From: Fibrobacteria bacterium
GTDB taxonomy: Bacteria; Fibrobacterota; Fibrobacteria; UBA11236
Direction: 5' to 3'
DNA length: 30,589 nucleotides
NCBI GenBank assembly: GCA_043745805.1
Contig: JAYTSD010000047.1
Span: forward strand, 1-30,589
Each line of letters opens with the position of its first letter. Position 1 is the stretch's first letter. This document shows, in pieces, positions 6,632 through 15,983 of this stretch. The notes beneath the pieces are model-generated. The model was given only the letters and a program-made list of their open reading frames with translations. It was not told the origin of the DNA and did no database searches. The position numbers and the translations under genes were made by a program.

Positions 6632-7345
6632 TTATAAGCCTAAAAATTGAATCCCTAAACCGCATAGGCAAATGGTGAAGCCTGCCAAGGCCTGACTATA
6701 GCGTTCAAATTTTTGCATAGGCAAAAAACTAAGTCCATGCAAAGAAATTAAAACCATGGTGACCATGGTGATCAAGGTGACGAATGCGAAAACAAAAGTG
6801 ACGGCAACAGTGGTTTGCCAATGATTTTTTACCGAAGGGTATAAAAGTAAAGGGATTAACGGTTCGCAAGGTCCAAAAATAAAAATGGTAAAAAGTATCC
6901 ACGGCGTCATTTGTGAGTTACCCTCTTTTGCATGGGCATGACTATGCATATGCTGATGATTGTGTGTATGGGTATGTAAACCGGAATCTGCATGACTATG
7001 TGCATGCGAATGCGTTTTTTGACGCAAAGCTTTTTTTAAACCCCATAAACCATAAACCAAACCAAAAGCAATCAAAGCCCATCCCGCTAAGTTACCTCGC
7101 CAACTATCCAAGCCCACAAATTTATGCAAGGTAAGGCCAGCACCTAATCCGATTAACCCTAATAAAAAAGCGCTCGATACATGGCCGATACCACAAAGCA
7201 AAGTGATGCAAATAGATTTGCGAGTACTCCAATTCCCTGCCTTAGCCATAGCGATAAAAGGCAAATAATGATCCGGCCCCAGTACAGTATGCACCAGAGC
7301 AAGGGAAGCGGCGCTTCCCGTTAATAGGGCGGACTCAAATAGCAT
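6632..7345 (-). CDS. His-rich nickel/cobalt permease-like membrane protein (UreH/NicO/RcnA-like)
   Basis: HTVLGPDH motif in TM1, CGIGHV, long His loop (HSHAHSHADSGLHTHTHNHQHMHSHAH), GPCEP, about 6 TM segments. Start reassigned to ATG 7345 to avoid overlap with the divergent gene. Confidence 0.8.
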   Translation of the reverse strand: MLFESALLTGSAASLALVHTVLGPDHYLPFIAMAKAGNWSTRKSICITLLCGIGHVSSAFLLGLIGLGAGLTLHKFVGLDSWRGNLAGWALIAFGLVYGLWGLKKALRQKTHSHAHSHADSGLHTHTHNHQHMHSHAHAKEGNSQMTPWILFTIFIFGPCEPLIPLLLYPSVKNHWQTTVAVTFVFAFVTLITMVTMVLISLHGLSFLPMQKFERYSQALAGFTICLCGLGIQFLGL

Positions 7346-7403
7346 GAACTCTATACTAGAAAATTCCCTACCGAAATTCCATTTTTCGCGTATATTTATC
7401 CCA

Positions 7404-7916
7404 ATGAATAAGGCCATGCAAATCTTTCGTAAAGCCCTACGCCTGCGAGGGTATTTGGCTTTTGCTTTTTTACTTTGGTCTATTGTTCCGCATTTTCAAC
7501 TTATTACGCATACGCATACTGGCGGAGAAAAGGGACATTTTCATGCCGATTTATCCAAAGGGGATATCGCCAATGCAAACCTTATTTTCAACACACTCGA
7601 AGGTGTAGCTTCTTCGCCCGAAGAAAAAAATCAGGACATAAATACCAAAGAGAACAATAATAAACGTGAGAATACTAAAGCATCTGCGAATCTTAAAACA
7701 ATTTTTGCGGGAGTAGGATTAAATGCCGAAGGCAAGTCGAAACCGCATAGCCATTATAGCGAAGAGGCGAATTTAGCAAGCTTAGCTTCTCAGTTTGATA
7801 ATGCATCTCCTGAATTAGACATTATTGCTTATCTAGAAGAGTATTATCAAACACCTTCTGTATTTGGATATTCGCATTTTCAGGCGCGCGCGCCTCCGCT
7901 TCTTTCTCTCTCTTAA
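7404..7916 (+). CDS. Exported His-rich leader protein ending in RAPP (putative translation-arrest regulator, DUF2946/CruR-like architecture)
   Basis: Basic/hydrophobic N-terminus (RKALRLRGYLAFAFLLWSIVP), HTHTGGEKGHFH, low-complexity linker, HSHY, C-terminal FQARAPPLLSLS*; lies directly upstream of a TonB receptor. Confidence 0.75.
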   Translation: MNKAMQIFRKALRLRGYLAFAFLLWSIVPHFQLITHTHTGGEKGHFHADLSKGDIANANLIFNTLEGVASSPEEKNQDINTKENNNKRENTKASANLKTIFAGVGLNAEGKSKPHSHYSEEANLASLASQFDNASPELDIIAYLEEYYQTPSVFGYSHFQARAPPLLSLS

Positions 7917-8019
7917 ATTCCGTCCTTAAATATCACTAAGCCTAAGGTTAGCCTTGGGTAACATCGACGTTTCAATCCATTACCATGGTTTGATGAAAAA
8001 TTTATTAGAAAGAAAGTTT

Positions 8020-10104
8020 ATGCAAACATTTTGGAAATACACGCTTTTATTAAGCGGCATAATGCCTTCAGTATGGGGTCAGGCAATCGACTCAACTGAG
8101 ACGGCGAATACAGCGAAGTCGTCATTATATGTTCCCGACACTTTAGAGTTACCTCAAGCCAATGCGAAAGCAAGAAAGGCCATTACTTCTTCGAATAGCC
8201 AAATAATTCGCGATCGCGATTTGTCTTTGCGCGTAATGACCGATCCAAGCGATGTGATAAAAGTAACTCCGGGTTTATTTACCGGACAACATGCAGGCGG
8301 TGGCAAAGCGAATCAATATTTTATTCGCGGCTTTGACGCGGATCATGGAACGGACTTGTCCTTGTGGTTTGATGGCATGCCGATTAACAATATAAGCCAT
8401 GGCCATGGACAAGGTTATGCGGATTTGCATTTCATCATTCCCGAATTGGTGGAACAAGTGCAAGTGAATAAAGGTCCTTATGCCATTGAGTATGGAGACT
8501 TAGCCACTGCAGGATCCGTAAGCATGAAAACCCGCAAGCGCTTTACGGAAAATGAATTGTATGTTACGGGAGGTATGGATAATACTTCTCGAGTACTCAG
8601 CATACTTACTCTGAACACACCTGCAAAGCCGATTTTAGCGGCGGAAGTATTTCGCTCTGATGGCCCGTTCAAAAATCCCGAAAATTTGGAGCGCTATAAT
8701 TTATTTTTAAAAACACCTATCACTGAAAACGCTAATTCTTCCTTGGATTTGACTTTGATGGCTTATGGCAGTGGTTGGAATGGCTCGGGGCAAGTGGCAC
8801 AGCGCGCTATTGATTCCGGTTGGATAAATCGTTTTGGATCGCTGGATCCTTCCGAAGGGGGTAGCTCGCAACGTCAAAGTGTTTCTTTGAATTATTTTTC
8901 CGCGCCCAGCGTAAATGAAGAATTTCAAGCGACGGCTTATTTAATTAATTATCGACTTTCACTTTATTCGGATTTTACTTTCTTTGCTGATGATTCTATC
9001 AATGGCGATGAGATTAATCAGCGGGATGATAGAACCGTGACGGGTTTCCAAGCGACCTATGAGCATAAACATAATTTAATGGGCTTGCCTGCGGAGGCCT
9101 TATTTGGCTTAGCTTCGCGCAATGATTTAATTCATACCAATTTGGATCATGCTAAAGAACGGAAACTATTAAATAAAAAAGTGGATGCGGAAACACGCGA
9201 AGGAAGTTACAGCACTTTTGTAAAGGAATCGATTACGCCTTTACCTTGGTTGTATTTAGAATTAGGTTTGCGTGGCGATCATTTTAGTTTTAATGTAACA
9301 GATAAGTTACTTGAAACTGGCGATAGCTCCATTACGGGTGTAAAAGATGCTTCCATTTTCAGTCCTAAAGTGAACGTCGTGGTAACGCCTATTCCCGGAA
9401 CCGATATTTATTTTAATTACGGTGAAGGCTTTCATTCTAATGATGCACGCGGGGTTACGACTACTATTGATCCCGCTCGTCCTTTAACCAAGGGTGTGGG
9501 ATATGAAGTGGGTACACGTACGCAATTATTTCAGCGTTGGGATTTAGCCGCTTCGCTTTGGCGTTTAGACATGGATGGCGAATTTGTTTGGGTGGGTGAC
9601 GGCGGTGGTACGGCAGAAAGCTTTGCTTCCAAAAGAATCGGTGTTGATTTCGAAACACGATTACAAATTTTATCTTGGTTGTGGGCGGATTTCGATATGA
9701 CTAAATGTACTGCCGATTATACGCATAATGCAGGAAATGGTACTGCTGTGGCTTTAGCGCCGCGACTCACCATGGCTGGTGGATTATCTATGCGTCATGC
9801 TTCGGGTGTGTATGGAAGTTTGCGTATGCAACATTTGGACGATCGGCCCGCGGATGAAGCGGGGAGCTTTATTGCGTATGGTTTCACTGTGTTTGATTTG
9901 GCTGTCGGATATCGTTATAAGAATTGGGAACTCATTGCAACTATAAGTAATCTATTTAATACTAAATGGTATAATGCTCAATTTGAAAATGATTCGCGGA
10001 TCAAAAATCCTCAAGGTGTAATAGAAGCGGCAACCGTTACCGATATGCATGTGGTTCCGGGAACGCCTTTTCATTTGCAAGGCGGGTTGAAGCTGTATTT
10101 TTAA
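8020..10104 (+). CDS. TonB-dependent outer membrane receptor, probably for a metal
   Basis: Signal peptide from ATG 8020; plug QHAGGGKANQYFIRGFDADHGTD...HGHGQGYADLHF, VNKGPY; NLFN; terminal GLKLYF. Confidence 0.92.
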   Translation: MQTFWKYTLLLSGIMPSVWGQAIDSTETANTAKSSLYVPDTLELPQANAKARKAITSSNSQIIRDRDLSLRVMTDPSDVIKVTPGLFTGQHAGGGKANQYFIRGFDADHGTDLSLWFDGMPINNISHGHGQGYADLHFIIPELVEQVQVNKGPYAIEYGDLATAGSVSMKTRKRFTENELYVTGGMDNTSRVLSILTLNTPAKPILAAEVFRSDGPFKNPENLERYNLFLKTPITENANSSLDLTLMAYGSGWNGSGQVAQRAIDSGWINRFGSLDPSEGGSSQRQSVSLNYFSAPSVNEEFQATAYLINYRLSLYSDFTFFADDSINGDEINQRDDRTVTGFQATYEHKHNLMGLPAEALFGLASRNDLIHTNLDHAKERKLLNKKVDAETREGSYSTFVKESITPLPWLYLELGLRGDHFSFNVTDKLLETGDSSITGVKDASIFSPKVNVVVTPIPGTDIYFNYGEGFHSNDARGVTTTIDPARPLTKGVGYEVGTRTQLFQRWDLAASLWRLDMDGEFVWVGDGGGTAESFASKRIGVDFETRLQILSWLWADFDMTKCTADYTHNAGNGTAVALAPRLTMAGGLSMRHASGVYGSLRMQHLDDRPADEAGSFIAYGFTVFDLAVGYRYKNWELIATISNLFNTKWYNAQFENDSRIKNPQGVIEAATVTDMHVVPGTPFHLQGGLKLYF

Positions 10105-10153: not shown

Positions 10154-10265
10154 TTAAATCATACCTATAAGTTCGAACTACTTGTTTTCGTAACTTTCCT
10201 CTAAACCAATTACCCTTTATTCGCAACATTTTCTTATCTTATGTCGCGAAGTTCAAATGAACTTC

Positions 10266-10467
10266 TGCTTATAGGGAGCTTTCCTTACGAGGAAAGCATA
10301 ACGAGGAATTCCGTTTAAATCGGAAGCGAGCTCGTCGCTGTAAGCGGATCGAAACCCCGCACTGTGTTTACGCAGTAGCCACTGTTCTACAAAGAATGGG
10401 AAGGTGGGGAAGTAGTAGGAAACATTTATGTTTCCAATCCGCAAGCCAGAAGACTCACCTGCAAGTA
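10266..10467 (+). ncRNA. Cobalamin (B12) riboswitch
   Basis: AGGAAttccgtttAAATcggaa, GCTGTAA, GCCACTG...GGGAAGG and B12 box GCAAGCCAGAAGAC; P1 pairs 10266-10275 with 10458-10467; located upstream of metE. Confidence 0.92.
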
Positions 10468-10547
10468 TACCAATCATCTTCGAGGACAAGATGGATGGGT
10501 GGACAACTACAGCGTTTATCGCCATTGTTGCGCATTCCTTCTTCATG

Positions 10548-10572: not shown

Positions 10573-12855
10573 ATGCCTATTAAAACTCATAATCTCGGCT
10601 ATCCGCGTATTGGAAAAAACCGTGAACTCAAAAAAGCCATTGAAGCTTATTGGGGGAGCCGTTTACCTGCGGTGGAATTACAACAAATCATCGCTACTTT
10701 GCGACAGCGAAATTGGTTAAAGCAAAAGGAAGCAGGAATTGAATTAATTCCTTCCAATGATTTTACCTTATATGATCAAGTACTCGATCATATTTGCTTA
10801 TTGGGTTGTCAGCCGGAACGCTTCGTAAAAAAAAGTTTAGTGTTTGGCATGGATGATTATTTCTCCATGGCACGAGGTTCAGCGAATGCAGAGGCGATGG
10901 AAATGACTAAATGGTTTGATACCAATTATCATTATCTAGTTCCTGAATTAAAAAAAAATCAAACCTTTCAATTAGCATCTACCAAACCTGTGGATGAATT
11001 TTATGAAGCTTTAGCCTTGGGAATTAAAACTAAGCCCGTGCTACTTGGGCCGGTGTCTTTTTTGCGTTTGGCAAAATGTGTTGGGACGTCCTTTGATAAA
11101 CTGACTTTGTTACCCAAACTAATACCTATTTATGCTTTACTCTTACAAGAGTTGAAGCGGATTGGAGTTGAATGGGTGCAAATCGATGAACCTATTTTAG
11201 CTATGGATTTAAACAACGAGGAACAGGAAGCTTTTATAAGTACCTACAAAATATTAGCAAGTTCAGCCCCCTCGATTATTTTGTGTAGTTATTTTGGAGC
11301 TTATGGATCTAACTTATCATTAGCACTTTCATTACCTGTAAATGCTTTACATTTGGATTTATGTAGAGGCGAAGAAGATTTTGATTTTGCATTAGAAAAT
11401 TTATCTTCTAGGTGCTTATTATCCTTGGGTCTAGTAGATGGTCGAAATATTTGGAAAAATAACTTTGCGCATTCCTTAGCACTTATCGAAAAAGCCAAAG
11501 AAAAATTAGGGGAAGCAAGGCTTTGGATTGCTCCTTCTTGTTCACTACTTCATTCTCCTTTATCACTGGCCATGGAAGACAAGCCCTCAGGTATTCCCCA
11601 CGAATTATCCCGCTGGATGTCTTTTGCAGAAGAGAAATTAATCGAAGTTAAAACTTTAGCGCATTTGGCCAGTGTGAGTAACAGCAAAGATACTCTTGAA
11701 TACCAAAATAATCAGGACGATATCGGGCATCGTAAAGATCATGCCGCTTTGAAAATTAGGAGCGTGCAAGAGAAATGTGAAAATGTTAAAACGGAGCATT
11801 TGCGCAGAAAATCAGTTTTTAGTCAAAGAAAAGTTGTTCAACAAAATAAATTACAATTACCGAATTTTCCGACAACTACAATCGGATCTTTTCCGCAAAC
11901 TGAAGCGGTGCGTCAAGCGCGAGCAAATGCAAAGAATGGATCATGGTCTATGCTGCAGTACCGTAATTTTCTAAAAGCGGAAACTATACGGGTGGTTAAG
12001 TTGCAGGAGGATTTAGGTTTAGATGTGCTGGTACATGGCGAATTTGAACGTAATGATATGGTGGAATATTTTGGAGAGAAATTACATGGCTTTACTTTCA
12101 GCGCGAATGGCTGGGTGCAGAGTTATGGAACACGCTGCGTGAAACCACCTATTATTTTTGGTGATGTTTGTCGCCGTGAGGCCATGACAGTGGAATGGTC
12201 ATCTTTTGCGCAAGCAGCTACTACAAAACCCATGAAAGGTATGTTAACTGGACCGGTTACTATTTTGAAATGGAGTTTCGTGCGCGACGATCAGCCTTTG
12301 GATGTTACAGCTAGGCAAATAGCTTGGGCTATCCGTGAAGAAGTATTGGACTTAGAAACGGCAGGGTTACCCATAATTCAAATTGATGAGCCTGCTTTGC
12401 GTGAAGGAATGCCTTTACGACCAGACGCTGCAAAGATTTATCTTAAATGGGCTGTGGAAGCATTTCAATTATCTGCTTCAGGTGTTCGTGACGAAACCCA
12501 AATCCATACACATATGTGTTACTGTGACTTTCATGAAATCCTAGATTCTGTGGCTGCTATGGATGCAGATGTTATTTCACTGGAAGCTGCACGTTCACGT
12601 ATGGAGTTGCTAGAAGCATTTGTGCATTTCGACTATCCCAATGGGGTTGGTCCAGGTATTTGGGATATTCATTCTCCGCGTATTCCAACAGTTATTGAAA
12701 TGGAAAAGCTATTACTAAAGGCAAGTGAAAGAGTTGAGAAAGGTAACTTATGGGTTAACCCAGACTGTGGCCTTAAAACTCGAGGCTGGCCGGAAGTACT
12801 TCAGGCTCTTGAACATATGGTGACGGCTGCGAAACTTCTGCGAAAGGTTTTTTAA
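10573..12855 (+). CDS. metE: Cobalamin-independent methionine synthase
   Basis: True start MPIKTHNLGYPRIG at 10573; MTKWFDTNYHY, PTTTIGSFPQT, HGEFERNDMVEYF; Zn ligands in HTHMCY and NPDCGLKTR. Confidence 0.97.
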   Translation: MPIKTHNLGYPRIGKNRELKKAIEAYWGSRLPAVELQQIIATLRQRNWLKQKEAGIELIPSNDFTLYDQVLDHICLLGCQPERFVKKSLVFGMDDYFSMARGSANAEAMEMTKWFDTNYHYLVPELKKNQTFQLASTKPVDEFYEALALGIKTKPVLLGPVSFLRLAKCVGTSFDKLTLLPKLIPIYALLLQELKRIGVEWVQIDEPILAMDLNNEEQEAFISTYKILASSAPSIILCSYFGAYGSNLSLALSLPVNALHLDLCRGEEDFDFALENLSSRCLLSLGLVDGRNIWKNNFAHSLALIEKAKEKLGEARLWIAPSCSLLHSPLSLAMEDKPSGIPHELSRWMSFAEEKLIEVKTLAHLASVSNSKDTLEYQNNQDDIGHRKDHAALKIRSVQEKCENVKTEHLRRKSVFSQRKVVQQNKLQLPNFPTTTIGSFPQTEAVRQARANAKNGSWSMLQYRNFLKAETIRVVKLQEDLGLDVLVHGEFERNDMVEYFGEKLHGFTFSANGWVQSYGTRCVKPPIIFGDVCRREAMTVEWSSFAQAATTKPMKGMLTGPVTILKWSFVRDDQPLDVTARQIAWAIREEVLDLETAGLPIIQIDEPALREGMPLRPDAAKIYLKWAVEAFQLSASGVRDETQIHTHMCYCDFHEILDSVAAMDADVISLEAARSRMELLEAFVHFDYPNGVGPGIWDIHSPRIPTVIEMEKLLLKASERVEKGNLWVNPDCGLKTRGWPEVLQALEHMVTAAKLLRKVF

Positions 12856-12867
12856 GGCGGGGCGCTT

Positions 12868-12930
12868 AATTAAAGGCCTGGCTATATCTAATCGAAATAT
12901 GATTCGACTAGTTTCTAGCCAAGCTTAATT
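12868..12930. terminator. Long imperfect hairpin between convergent genes
   Basis: AATTAA..TGGCTA..TCGAA-atatga-TTCGA..TAGCCA..TTAATT. Confidence 0.45.
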
Positions 12931-13755
12931 TTATTTTGAAAACTTAATTTCCACTCCCAAATCCCAATCAAAGCGGGTATTTTTACCTAAGGCAATTTCT
13001 AAGGATTGGGTAACGGATAGATTTTTTGAAAAATAATCCACTGCTAACCCTAAATTTTGATGCATTCTTCCTTGACCTTCTAATTTTCCAAAAGCATATT
13101 GTCCATTGAATTGCAATTCCGGCCTTAAGGATAAAGCGGGTAGAGATTTTCCCATTGCCAAGCGATAGAGAAATTCATGATCTTCATGGGGTTGAACATA
13201 AAGTGGTGAAAGCGTCTCCATGGGCATAGCCATCATATTGCTTTCATGTTCATGCGCAAAAATTACCGAGCGAAAACCTAAACCTATTGAACTCTCTAAA
13301 ATATGGCCTTGATAGAGATAATTGATAAAAGGCACAAGCATCCAATGATCGGTGCCGATGCCATCCTCTTCATCGCCAAAGGGCAATTCCAACTGTGAAC
13401 CGAGAACAATAATGTTTTGCGAGGACAAATGTTGTTCGCGAGAAATAGAAAGTAAGGGATTACCCGTACCGATTTTATTCTCGTCCATTATATGCAAGCG
13501 AACCACCGGGATGCTTGCTCCGAAAACCCATTGTTGCAGGCCTAAATATTCTAGGCGTGGAATAGCTTCGGAATAGTAACCGTTATTTTCCAGCGAAAAT
13601 TCTACTTGATGTAATGCTAGGCTAGTGCGAAAAAATTTGACTTCAGCGTCGGGACGCGGGCAAAAATTTAATCCACAATGGGCATACATGTTTTGTTGAA
13701 ATAGCCCTAAGTATAGAGCCATAAAGAACATATTTAATAAATACATACGTAACAT
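12931..13755 (-). CDS. Putative outer-membrane beta-barrel protein with metal-binding motifs
   Basis: SD GGAG before ATG 13755; signal peptide ending ...MYA, mature start HCGLNFCP; GTGNP...GSQLELPFG motif typical of small transporter-like barrels; loop HEHESNMMAMPM...HEDHE; amphipathic C-terminal strand LGVEIKF. Confidence 0.65.
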   Translation of the reverse strand: MLRMYLLNMFFMALYLGLFQQNMYAHCGLNFCPRPDAEVKFFRTSLALHQVEFSLENNGYYSEAIPRLEYLGLQQWVFGASIPVVRLHIMDENKIGTGNPLLSISREQHLSSQNIIVLGSQLELPFGDEEDGIGTDHWMLVPFINYLYQGHILESSIGLGFRSVIFAHEHESNMMAMPMETLSPLYVQPHEDHEFLYRLAMGKSLPALSLRPELQFNGQYAFGKLEGQGRMHQNLGLAVDYFSKNLSVTQSLEIALGKNTRFDWDLGVEIKFSK

Positions 13756-13959
13756 AAAACTCCGAATAAAAAGTGGTGAGTGCAATATGCAGAACTTGGC
13801 TTATTCAAGCCCGTCCAGAACTATATTGTCAAGTGAGAATGTTGTTAAAGATTAATATATGGCCCACCAACGGAAAACTGTAAATTTTTTCCGTGAGCAA
13901 AACCTAACTGGGTTCGGATATGATCGTAACTTTAATGTTACTATATCAAAATGGAGAGA

Positions 13960-14442
13960 TTATGCGAGTATGGGGACTTTTTCAGGAGGGGGAGGGGTTA
14001 ATCCTATATAGCGAGGATTAAAATCAAAATGCTTTAATAATTTAGAATGCACACCATTCGTGAAAAAATCTTCCAGGGGAACATGCGGCTCAAATTTGGG
14101 AGCAGAAGTGAAGGCATCTTGTTGATGTGAATCACAACGATCGACAGCTAGCCAGCAATCCCCGACATTGCGCGCAATTTGATTTTCATGGCCATTTTCA
14201 GGAGCGCCAAAACCTTTTTTAAAACAACAACATTTCAATTTGCATTGCAAAGCATTTTTACACGCGCATTGATGATGGGCGCAAGGAAAATCTTCGTTGA
14301 TATGTGCTATTTGGAATAATTGGGAAACGGGAGCGATAATTTGCGCAGAAAAAGCCAGATATAGTAAAATTAGACCGGAGCCAATTAACTTCAGGGTTAA
14401 GCGGCCAAGTCTGGAATTTGTCCTAAACCGTACAGTGTTCAT
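13960..14442 (-). CDS. Exported Cys/His-rich protein with C-terminal polyproline (putative leader/arrest regulator)
   Basis: N-terminal hydrophobic segment, FPCAHHQCACKNALQCKLKCCCF, CWLAVDRCDSH, C-terminal TPPPPEKVPILA*. Start reassigned to ATG 14442. Confidence 0.7.
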   Translation of the reverse strand: MNTVRFRTNSRLGRLTLKLIGSGLILLYLAFSAQIIAPVSQLFQIAHINEDFPCAHHQCACKNALQCKLKCCCFKKGFGAPENGHENQIARNVGDCWLAVDRCDSHQQDAFTSAPKFEPHVPLEDFFTNGVHSKLLKHFDFNPRYIGLTPPPPEKVPILA

Positions 14443-14592: not shown

Positions 14593-15045
14593 ATGAAAAT
14601 ATTTAGCTTAATTAAAAAATCTTTTTTTGCGAAAATCATTGTGACCTTAACGATTTCCTTGAGTGCTTTCGCCGTTATGAATTGTGATAGTTCAAAGGAT
14701 CAGAATGCCACTTTGAAAATTATTTCCCCTGCGCAAAATGCAGAGGTATACGGCTCAGATTTTGAGTTAAAGGTTAAAACCACCAACTTTACTTATGCAG
14801 TTGGGGCTGTGGAAAAAATTTCAGCTGCACAATCTTCCATAAAAGGGGGACATGTTCATGTATTTATGGATACACCAGTTTCTGAAGTAAATGAACTTTT
14901 AACCATGCATGAAGATAGCGTAAGAATTTTTGTTGAAGGTGATGGTTGGCATTATATTATAGTTACCGGAGCGGATTCTTCACATACGCCTGTGACAACA
15001 ATGAGGGATTCCGTTAAATTCCATGTAAATTTCCCAGCTAATTAG
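14593..15045 (+). CDS. Lipoprotein with Ig-like fold and GHxH motif (DUF4399-like, putative metal binding)
   Basis: SD AAGGA and ATG 14593; lipobox-like AVMN-C; LKIISPAQNAEV; GHVHVFMD...WHYIIVTGADSSHTP. Confidence 0.65.
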   Translation: MKIFSLIKKSFFAKIIVTLTISLSAFAVMNCDSSKDQNATLKIISPAQNAEVYGSDFELKVKTTNFTYAVGAVEKISAAQSSIKGGHVHVFMDTPVSEVNELLTMHEDSVRIFVEGDGWHYIIVTGADSSHTPVTTMRDSVKFHVNFPAN

Positions 15046-15077: not shown

Positions 15078-15488
15078 TTAATAGGGTAACTTGGAGCGTA
15101 CTAGATTAAATACTAAAGCTCCAAGCAATGCACCTGCCAAGGTGAAAAAAGCAAAATATTCGCCCACACCTATTTGTGCATAAATGGGGCCTGGACAAGT
15201 TCCAGCAAAAAACCAACCTAATCCGAAAATAAATCCACCGATAAATTTGCCTTTATCCATTTTCTTTTCCGGTATAAAAGGAGTTTGCCCTGCGAAGGTT
15301 TTTATTGCGAATTTGCGAATAATATAAAGCGAGATTGCGCCGACAGCTACTGCTGAACCGATAATCAAATAAAGATCGGGTTCGCGAAAATAAAACATAT
15401 TGCGGATTTTAAACCAAGAAATAACTTGGGCTTTGGTAAGTAAAATTCCAAAAAAGATTCCCATTAATAATAGTTTAAGTTTTTTCAT
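15078..15488 (-). CDS. YeeE/YedE-family sulfur transport protein (second half-size subunit)
   Basis: GGFIFGLGWFFAGTCPGP motif, 4 TM segments. Confidence 0.88.
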   Translation of the reverse strand: MKKLKLLLMGIFFGILLTKAQVISWFKIRNMFYFREPDLYLIIGSAVAVGAISLYIIRKFAIKTFAGQTPFIPEKKMDKGKFIGGFIFGLGWFFAGTCPGPIYAQIGVGEYFAFFTLAGALLGALVFNLVRSKLPY

Positions 15489-15500
15489 TATTTGTTTCCT

Positions 15501-15983
15501 CTATCTTAATAGCAAAGTGATTGCGGCTGCGACTAAGCCTCCGGCAAAGAATCCTAGCACGGCCACTAAGCTTGCTAATTGTAAAGAAGACAATCCGAAA
15601 ATAGCATGTCCTGAAGTGCATCCTTCGGCATAACGAGTTCCAAAACCTATAAGGAATCCGCCCGCGAGTAATTTTGCTGCACCTGAAAGTGAATGATAAC
15701 TTTCAGGAAACAGAAATATTGGAACGCGAGAAAGAAAATGGGCGACAATAAAACCTCCCAAAATTAACCCTATAGCAAAAATAATTTTCCAACTTTCTTT
15801 ACGGTTTCCAGCATCATTGCGCAATTTTGGAGTAAACGTGGAGAATACCGTAACACATAAGTTCTGGAAAGTGCTGGAAATTCCTAAAGCTTTATTGGAA
15901 AGCAGTAATAATAAGGGAACCGTTAAACCGATTAAGGGGCCAGTAACATACCATGGCCAGGGATCTAAAATACTATCAAACAT
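15501..15983 (-). CDS. YeeE/YedE-family thiosulfate/sulfur transport protein (first half-size subunit)
   Basis: WPWYVTGPLIG, LGISS, GFGTRYAEGCTSGHAIFG. Confidence 0.9.
   Translation of the reverse strand: MFDSILDPWPWYVTGPLIGLTVPLLLLLSNKALGISSTFQNLCVTVFSTFTPKLRNDAGNRKESWKIIFAIGLILGGFIVAHFLSRVPIFLFPESYHSLSGAAKLLAGGFLIGFGTRYAEGCTSGHAIFGLSSLQLASLVAVLGFFAGGLVAAAITLLLR

Follow-up and report, generated by a model that had tools for sequence, protein, structure and literature searches.

In silico analyses of a 30,589-nucleotide (nt) stretch of a Fibrobacteria genome (contig JAYTSD010000047.1; the whole stretch is hereafter called the window) point to a putative metal-sensing leader gene (positions 13960-14442, reverse strand) located upstream of a gene for an outer-membrane beta-barrel (12931-13755, reverse strand). 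The leader product carries an export-type N-terminus, candidate metal ligands and a proline-containing motif near its stop codon, with a fixed spacing between the ligands and this motif, and it is for these reasons that it is read here as a metal-sensing arrest leader. With a probability that we estimate at ca. 55%, it would act in cis as a co-translationally exported metal sensor controlling a metal channel, and would represent an undescribed variant of the CruR and CutF leaders that does not have the RAPP tail.

The leader gene, its family and its C-terminal tail

The leader and barrel open reading frames (ORFs) are real genes and not chance frames. From its MNTV start, the leader encodes the exported, Cys/His-rich protein of 160 amino acids (aa) that a first-pass annotation of this DNA had described, with the PPPP codons located, as had been claimed, at 13984-13995; an in-frame ATG further upstream (14520) would add 26 residues to give 186 aa, and a clear Shine-Dalgarno (SD) sequence is found at neither start. 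Arg/Lys-rich residues precede a hydrophobic segment (residues 11-32; 14347-14412), which is modelled by AlphaFold2 (AF2) as a helix with a predicted local distance difference test score (pLDDT) above 90 and which is predicted to be either a signal anchor or a signal peptide. This membrane helix alone is confident in the AF2 model based on the family alignment (predicted template modelling score, pTM, of 0.30; pLDDT <50 at residues 87-115) and no globular fold is predicted beyond it, the last 20 residues having pLDDT values of 71-87. The protein contains CAHHQCACKNALQCKLKCCC, and its residues 54-73 (14224-14283) form a Cys cluster, C54-x2-H57-x-C59-x-C61-x5-C67-x3-C71C72C73, whose seven Cys and one His are presumed from the motif to constitute a metal-binding head. 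Closer to the C-terminus are found Cys103 (14134-14136), 52 residues ahead of the tail Lys155, and His120 (14083-14085), which belongs to an (L-x-P)-H-(L/V)-P motif and lies 35 residues ahead of the same Lys. The tail itself, PPPP-E-K-V-P-I (13969-13995), is the candidate arrest motif and is followed by codons for Leu and Ala and by the stop codon (13960-13962), the protein thus ending in PPPPEKVPILA.

When 1.84 billion cluster representatives were searched exhaustively with phmmer (E<=1e-3), a family of 77 proteins was retrieved, nearly all of 136-230 aa and mostly of 136-178 aa, whose profile recovers the window leader at E=1.3e-37. In an alignment of 39 members (A1, a subset of which, A2, supplied the profile for scanning loci), C54, C59, C71-73 and C103 are invariant and H57, C61, C67 and P157 are at least 90% conserved. 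The Cys-cluster motif occurs in 73 of 76 family matches, bearing out the expectation that homologues would preserve it. A hydrophobic 15-mer ahead of the cluster was found in 70 of 74 members, with a net-positive N-terminal flank in 61, and across the family this segment lies a median of 131 residues from the C-terminus.

The leader itself matched no Pfam or NCBIfam family and the 39 members gave chance-level matches only against the two collections; NF047658 ('HYC_CC_PP'), which one member matched at E 0.029 and which is absent from this genome, was considered and discarded. The 30 nearest ESM-Atlas clusters are all labelled 'hypothetical protein', none with a Pfam family, and a word-seeded protein search with the leader recovered the leader alone. 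Members were found in 4 of the 41 close relatives; across the phylum, five genomes out of 296 gave a match (the fifth of them weak), and elsewhere the family was seen in genomes of Planctomycetota and Omnitrophota as well as in contigs from metagenomes. Judging from these sequence comparisons, the leader is a member of a real, unannotated and patchily distributed family that extends over several phyla. No earlier description of this family was found in the literature, the published list of CutF-like proteins (File S1, PMC9973294) being one that might include members; the family tail strings were absent from the literature searched, in which KVPI and KIPI matched unrelated acronyms.

The family tail follows the consensus [DE]PP[DE]-K-[VI]-P-[IL], with the stop codon 0-8 residues further on in most members and up to 13 residues on at the most; K[VI]P lies within the final 12 residues in 45/76 matches and PP within the final 15 in 50/76. 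When 65 non-redundant sequences were aligned without gaps on the tail Lys, this residue was found in 97% of them and was followed by V/I (100%), P (100%) and I (86%), while P occurred at frequencies of 0.78 at -2 and 0.57 at -3, with D/E at -1 and -4. The first-pass annotation had proposed PPPPEKVP as an arrest motif and the conservation of a (D/E)KVP tail as a check: the K[VI]P[IL] part proved strongly conserved and the PPPP run did not, the closest relatives of the window leader ending in ALFKIPI, VLFKVPI or APQKVPI. On the evidence of this alignment, the conserved core of the tail is K[VI]P[IL] and not the run of prolines. The codons of the tail vary synonymously among the 20 loci compared (CCT/CCC/CCG/CCA, GAC/GAT, AAA/AAG, GTC/GTT/GTG, ATC/ATA/ATT), showing that the peptide, and not an RNA element, is what selection acts upon.

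In the 65 anchored sequences, His occupies exactly position -35 in 77%, within an L-x-P-H-L-P stretch that lies upstream of positions -32 to -5, which show no sequence conservation. Where the motif was found by regular expression, the distance from His to Lys is exactly 35 in 24 of 30 members; that from Cys to Lys is 50-53 in 42 of 46, and that from the CCC of the cluster to the tail is variable (70-96). The spacing of Cys and His to the tail Lys behaves like a ruler, almost without insertions or deletions.

The same spacing is associated with other tails and other heads. Some 17 more distant members have the same Cys head and a tail PPPR followed by 0-11 residues, the distance from Cys to tail being 51-54 in 10 of 16. 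This PPPR subfamily, which includes P0037, P0040, P0049, P0052, P0054 and P0057 (loci L019 and L022), is mostly longer (150-230 aa), and the loci seen belong to Planctomycetota and lie beside DUF1559 and DUF4198 genes. In two relatives, G013 and G009, there is in addition a gene for a paralogous leader (P0081 and P0082; L013 6483-6986 and L014 6538-7023, both reverse strand) that combines the same 52/35 spacing with another head, CCCxH...CxxxCC, and with a tail PPEKIPIA or VPDKIPIA; hhalign relates these two products to the leader family with 91% probability (E 9e-7), and their genes head a lipoprotein (GGHVH motif) and cytochrome c pair. Sensor head, tail and cargo gene would therefore seem, from such combinations, to be exchangeable parts.

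The outer-membrane barrel and the genomic context of leader genes

The leader and barrel genes are separated by 204 nt (13756-13959, reverse strand), in line with the ca. 200 nt first estimated, and this spacer contains a GGAG at 13760-13763. The barrel frame opens at TTG 13785; ATG 13755, which has the GGAG 4 nt upstream, is the likely start and gives a typical 25-residue signal peptide. Both peculiarities of the barrel that had been pointed out initially are present in the sequence. The mature protein begins with HCGLNFCP (13657-13680), which in alignment A3 corresponds to a clade motif A-x-CGL-x-x-CP, other barrel clades having CDxCGC or SCGSASCP at the mature N-terminus; and a His/Met/acid-rich loop, H168-E194 (13174-13254; HEHESNMMAMPMETLSPLYVQPHEDHE), is located between strands 153-165 and 193-203 and modelled with low confidence (pLDDT <50 at residues 171-177). 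Loops of homologues are His/Met-rich as well, for instance GMDHAGMNHGAMD in G009. Such Met/His/Asp repeats are presumably similar to the copper-binding repeats of CopA and CopB.

The structure prediction that had been suggested for the 274-aa barrel returned a confident 12-strand model (pLDDT 82.7, pTM 0.79), for which the best Foldseek matches are FapF (5o65; template modelling score, TM, 0.67-0.68, E 2e-10) and a Pseudomonas putida channel of the COG4313 group (4rl8; TM 0.66, E 1.6e-7). An N-terminal segment that may form a plug is modelled at pLDDT <50. The window barrel matches no Pfam family at E<=1, including PF13557 (Phenol_MetA_deg), which is matched by five of seven barrels found at the same position (L034, L037, L030, L044 and L039, not L036 and L017); of these, the L039 barrel is related to that of the window by jackhmmer (1.4e-26 after iteration), the pairwise match being weak (E 0.004). 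Motifs of the barrel clade are GxGNPLL, QLExPFGD, DHxMLxP and PHEDxE. Together with CGLxxCP and the His/Met loop, QLExPFGD and PHEDxE suggest a metal as the substrate, and not hydrophobic molecules or amyloid subunits, and the most likely role of the barrel is that of a pore through which a thiophilic metal passes independently of TonB. A literature search revealed no relevant tie between COG4313 and copper. Just 3' of the barrel gene, a terminator-like hairpin (12904-12922, reverse strand; a pattern match only, from a consensus scan) likely marks the end of the transcription unit.

A same-strand ORF follows the leader in all of the 21 distinct loci examined (L040 duplicates L017, and L025 and L026 share one leader). 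In 14 of these (the window, L017, L024, L027, L028, L029, L030, L032, L034, L035, L036, L037, L039 and L044) the next gene encodes an outer-membrane barrel of ca. 270-340 aa that has Cys residues at its mature N-terminus, in a CGLxxCP, CDxCGC or SCGSASCP motif, and the gaps between leader and barrel range from 64 to 204 nt where measured. The next gene encodes a TonB-dependent receptor at L031, a beta-propeller-like protein at L042 and a product of no known family at L026, while at L016 the leader is followed by DUF4418 and MacB-type ATP-binding cassette (ABC) transporter genes and has cupredoxin genes just upstream. At three further loci (L013-L015) the barrel gene is found at a later position of the same cluster. 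NicO-like permeases and TonB receptors recur near leader loci. The association with transport genes that the first-pass annotation anticipated was recovered: what follows the leader is, with consistency, either an outer-membrane barrel with a Cys motif or a different transport gene. Among the 41 relatives, the barrel was found in 13 (a tally that includes the unpublished G021, on which no conclusion depends by itself) and the leader in 4, so that nine of the 13 have the barrel without the leader, as is expected if the leader is an optional regulatory add-on. At L029, a cobalamin riboswitch (6634-6866) and cobU/cobT/cobS-like genes come after the leader and barrel genes, an adjacency that may be coincidental or a hint of cobalt.

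Other leaders of the same genome end in RAPP. Among the 9699 stop-to-stop frames of at least 70 aa in this genome, a K[VI]P[ILV], R[AG]PP or PPPR ending is found in 20, and three of these 20 also have a hydrophobic segment, more than 100 aa and at least seven Cys+His, two of them being located in the window and one on contig C39. Within the window, P0004 (7344-7916, forward strand) is a His-rich, membrane-anchored leader that ends in RAPPLLSLS, has an HSH motif 44 residues ahead of RAPP and lies directly upstream of a TonB-dependent receptor gene (7954-10104, forward strand); it has no Pfam or NCBIfam match. Homology between P0004 and the leader family was looked for with hhalign and rejected (7.5% probability). 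A homologue of P0004 in metagenome locus L042 (30% identity, E 4e-21) has an RGPP tail and the same 44-residue spacing, and is divergent from, and back to back with, a gene of the KVPI family. The gene on contig C39 (13567-13896, reverse strand) encodes a leader-like product of 109 aa in which a membrane segment, an HQH motif and a CQLC motif, the last of these 43 residues ahead of RAPP, precede a RAPPFKNI end; the genes that follow it, up to ca. position 10654, encode an outer-membrane protein of 356 aa, a binding protein resembling ZnuA and an ABC permease. By its position, the KVPI tail appears to occupy the place that RAPP has in these other leaders.

As for the remaining neighbours, a lipoprotein gene with a GGHVHVF motif (14593-15045, forward strand) is divergent from the leader and represents a conserved neighbour of the module: its product is 36% identical (E 6e-28) to that of L013:5928-6389, which in G013 follows the paralogous KIPI-tailed leader. 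Beside it is a split pair of YeeE/YedE-type genes (sulphur/selenium transport; 15078-15983, reverse strand), and a gene for a NicO/DsbD_2-like metal permease (6632-7417, reverse strand) is divergent from P0004. The sole Rfam match of the window is a cobalamin riboswitch (RF00174, 86.9 bits; 10256-10476, forward strand) ahead of metE (10396/10573-12855), and it is for this reason improbable that the metE ORF is translated over the long 5' extension with which it is listed.

Proposed mechanism and competing explanations

The analyses establish the family, its motifs and fixed spacing, the order of the genes and the fold of the barrel; export, metal binding, arrest, a direction of regulation and a metal are what we infer from them. 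The membrane segment would bring the nascent leader to the Sec translocon, and the head of seven Cys and one His would be exposed in the periplasm before translation of the last codons is complete. At these codons, elongation would be slowed or arrested by the tail [DE]PP[DE]-K-[VI]-P-[IL], a situation in which the His at -35 would be near the exit of the ribosomal tunnel and the Cys at -52 just outside. Binding of a metal to the exposed Cys/His ligands might then alter the dwell time of the ribosome and in this way set the amount of barrel produced. Two routes of coupling may be envisaged: a stalled ribosome could shield the 204-nt spacer from Rho, in the manner of CruR, or stalling could open the ribosome-binding site of the barrel gene, in the manner of CutF. 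As a first guess, the metal is most likely copper, in view of the thiolate-rich head, the His/Met loop of the barrel and the cupredoxin neighbours at L016; because of the NicO-type neighbours, nickel and cobalt are also candidates.

A bolder proposal, which we regard as possible but rather doubtful, is that K[VI]P[IL] after an acidic/Pro stretch constitutes a new class of arrest motif, tuned by metal on ligands held at fixed distances from the peptidyl transferase centre. The ribosome-translocon complex would then serve as the measuring frame, with the His at -35 at the tunnel exit, the Cys at -52 at the junction and the head in the periplasm, and exchangeable heads, tails (K[VI]P[IL], PPPR or RAPP) and cargo genes would make up a switch acting here on TonB-independent metal pores of the COG4313 type.

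Several observations weigh against an arrest leader. In the parts of the literature surveyed, K[VI]P[IL] is without precedent among published arrest motifs, and the tail of CutF alone gave no strong stalling in LepB fusions (PMC9973294). The PP is missing from the tails of the closest relatives of the window leader (LFKIPI, LFKVPI), and stalling on polyproline of the type relieved by elongation factor P (EF-P) cannot therefore be the conserved core. Gene order is not uniform either, since in three relatives (L013-L015) the barrel is located 3.3 kb downstream, behind DUF4266, a beta-propeller lipoprotein and DUF3570, and the leader is not at the head of its cluster at L025 and L028, where it is preceded by a TonB receptor gene. 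Regarding coupling, a promoter-like match (13848-13820) is found inside the spacer, such matches being no commoner than in shuffled sequences. Masking of the ribosome-binding site was assessed at 11 loci, folded from seven codons before the leader stop to the downstream start and compared with composition-matched shuffles: the probability of pairing between the SD sequence and the tail or post-stop region averaged 0.42 versus 0.34 in shuffles, which were beaten at L027, L030 and L031 only (3 of 11), and for the window 14 of 25 shuffles were at least as good. Masking as in the CutF model was consequently rejected, its support not going beyond base composition. The spacers are not clearly C-rich and G-poor (median C/G of 1.23 versus 1.12 in the leader coding sequences), and the base signature of Rho utilisation was set aside as uninformative. 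In the window spacer, the Rfam scan found no family, the pattern scan found no terminator-like site and the fold is unremarkable (z-score -1.5 to -1.8).

CruR and CutF have a CXXC or CXXXC motif; a cluster of seven Cys is more elaborate and would also suit a stable metal-cluster protein. The leader could accordingly be a membrane-anchored or periplasmic chaperone or redox partner that hands a thiophilic metal to, or receives it from, the Cys-bearing N-terminus of the barrel, its tail being a docking peptide and the 35/52 spacing reflecting a small fold missed by AF2. Such a role would account for the high conservation of this cluster, for the Cys motifs that the barrels carry at their own N-termini, for the adjacency of leader and barrel in 14 of 21 loci and for the pLDDT values of 71-87 over the last 20 residues of the leader. 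This is the main rival of the arrest leader, but we hold it to be unlikely. No globular fold is predicted, and the stretch of 28 residues that separates the tail from the His motif is fixed in length and unconserved in sequence, which is unusual for a folded domain. Moreover, the same tail and spacing head varied operons (TonB receptor, MacB ABC transporter, lipoprotein with cytochrome c), the leader gene is always upstream, most relatives with the barrel lack the leader, and a second, unrelated Pro-rich tail (PPPR) is found at the same distance.

It is even less probable that the tail is a C-terminal tag for degradation or sorting, recognised for instance by a tail-specific protease, that the protein has some different function in the periplasm without regulating the barrel, and that the gene order reflects nothing but a shared metal regulon. 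The motif is indeed found at the very C-terminus or close to it, its final residues are non-polar, the spacer does contain a promoter-like site and the barrel stands alone in many relatives; yet the 0-8 (up to 13) variable residues that follow the motif do not fit a strict carboxy-terminal tag, the rigid spacing to the upstream His and Cys would be left unexplained, and consistent same-strand adjacency with gaps of 64-204 nt, together with a window spacer devoid of terminator-like sites, speaks against it. Being small, Cys-rich and endowed with an N-terminal hydrophobic leader, the product also recalls the precursor of a secreted modified peptide, either metallophore-like or ribosomally synthesised and post-translationally modified. 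This was rejected as highly improbable, as no radical S-adenosylmethionine enzyme, cyclodehydratase or peptidase-ABC exporter occurs among the neighbours scanned in the window and the 21 loci, and a length of 140-170 aa with a conserved C-terminal half is unlike the layout of a core peptide. An anti-sigma factor was likewise rejected, with no sigma factor nearby and no cytoplasmic domain.

Ribosome-stalling leaders that sense metals, such as CruR and CutF, are a recently recognised means of controlling genes from outside the cytoplasm and have so far been tied to RAPP or polyproline tails and to DUF2946. If the arrest-leader interpretation is correct, a third, unrelated tail would be added, whose sharply defined spacing leads to clear mutational predictions; sensor head, tail and cargo gene would be shown to be exchangeable; the mechanism would be extended to phyla in which it is scarcely known; and the uncharacterised COG4313-like barrels with Cys-bearing N-termini would gain a likely role in metal transport together with a regulatory input. 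Should the tail not stall, there would still be a conserved family of periplasmic proteins with a Cys cluster that lacks annotation and is linked to metal channels.

Comparison with known channels and arrest leaders

The window barrel shares its predicted 12-strand fold with the COG4313 channel Pput2725 (4RL8) and with FapF (5O65), at TM 0.66-0.68, and differs from both in having no PF13557 match and in its CGLxxCP motif, His/Met loop, QLExPFGD and PHEDxE.

Compared with SecM, VemP, MifM, ApdA/ApdP and the RQH family (PMC10987492, PMC7897499), the leader displays three of the four properties used in published searches for arrest peptides, namely a localisation signal, a conserved C-terminal motif and a spacer of more than 30 residues (PMC10987492); as to the fourth, the gene downstream of the leader is not sec or yidC. 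Its K[VI]P[IL] core differs from the arrest motifs named in these sources (RAPP-like, KYxIW, NSP-stop, NAP-stop and DGMK-stop).

Searches with PF11162 (DUF2946) gave no match at E<=0.1 among the 39 family members, at E<=0.01 for the window leader or at E<=1 in the genome. As this profile also misses the two RAPP leaders of the genome, P0004 and the C39 gene, failure to match DUF2946 says little about mechanism.

The window leader resembles CutF of Rhodobacter capsulatus, for which stalling has been reported (bioRxiv 10.1101/2025.02.05.636593), in that a signal of the Sec type is combined with a Cys motif and with a C-terminus rich in proline; CutF is also reported to be undetectable or quickly degraded once exported. 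The leader further conforms to most of the rules that define CutF-like proteins: an N-terminal signal or Nin-Cout membrane segment is indicated by the AF2 helix at residues 11-32 and by the hydrophobicity of the family; PP occurs within the last 15 residues, the PPPP of the window lying 7-10 residues from the end (G013 and G011 do not have this feature); and a same-strand gene starts within 1000 nt downstream (204 nt). At 160 or 186 aa, it exceeds the length of <150 aa set for these proteins (PMC9973294), and a PF13557-type barrel is not among the neighbour classes named for them in the available part of that work. The PPPP is followed by E and K, as expected of EF-P-sensitive stretches. The 204-nt gap of the window is closer to the 162 nt of CruR than to the short stem-loop of CutF.

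The layout is also like that of CruR (Bp2923) of Bordetella pertussis, in which the spacing between CXXC and RAPP is conserved to within 1-2 residues and required for function, regulation being lost at +5 (PMC9426467), and for which arrest was demonstrated in vitro with toeprinting (PMC12992588). The two differ in sensor (a Cys7His cluster plus separate Cys103 and His120 in the window, CXXC in CruR), in tail (PPPPEKVPILA without RAPP and a family consensus [DE]PP[DE]K[VI]P[IL], against RAPP), in spacing (52 and 35 residues against ca. 45) and in cargo (a COG4313-like barrel against a TonB-dependent transporter). They nonetheless agree in being small upstream ORFs with an export-type N-terminus, a Cys motif, a Pro-containing motif near the stop codon at a fixed distance from the sensor, a long intergenic region (162 nt in CruR, 204 nt in the window) and an outer-membrane transporter downstream. 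The initial suggestion that the leader mirrors the architecture of the RAPP leader and of CutF was in this respect well founded: signal, ligands and Pro-containing tail are shared with CruR and CutF, down to a fixed spacing between sensor and tail (PMC9426467, PMC9973294).

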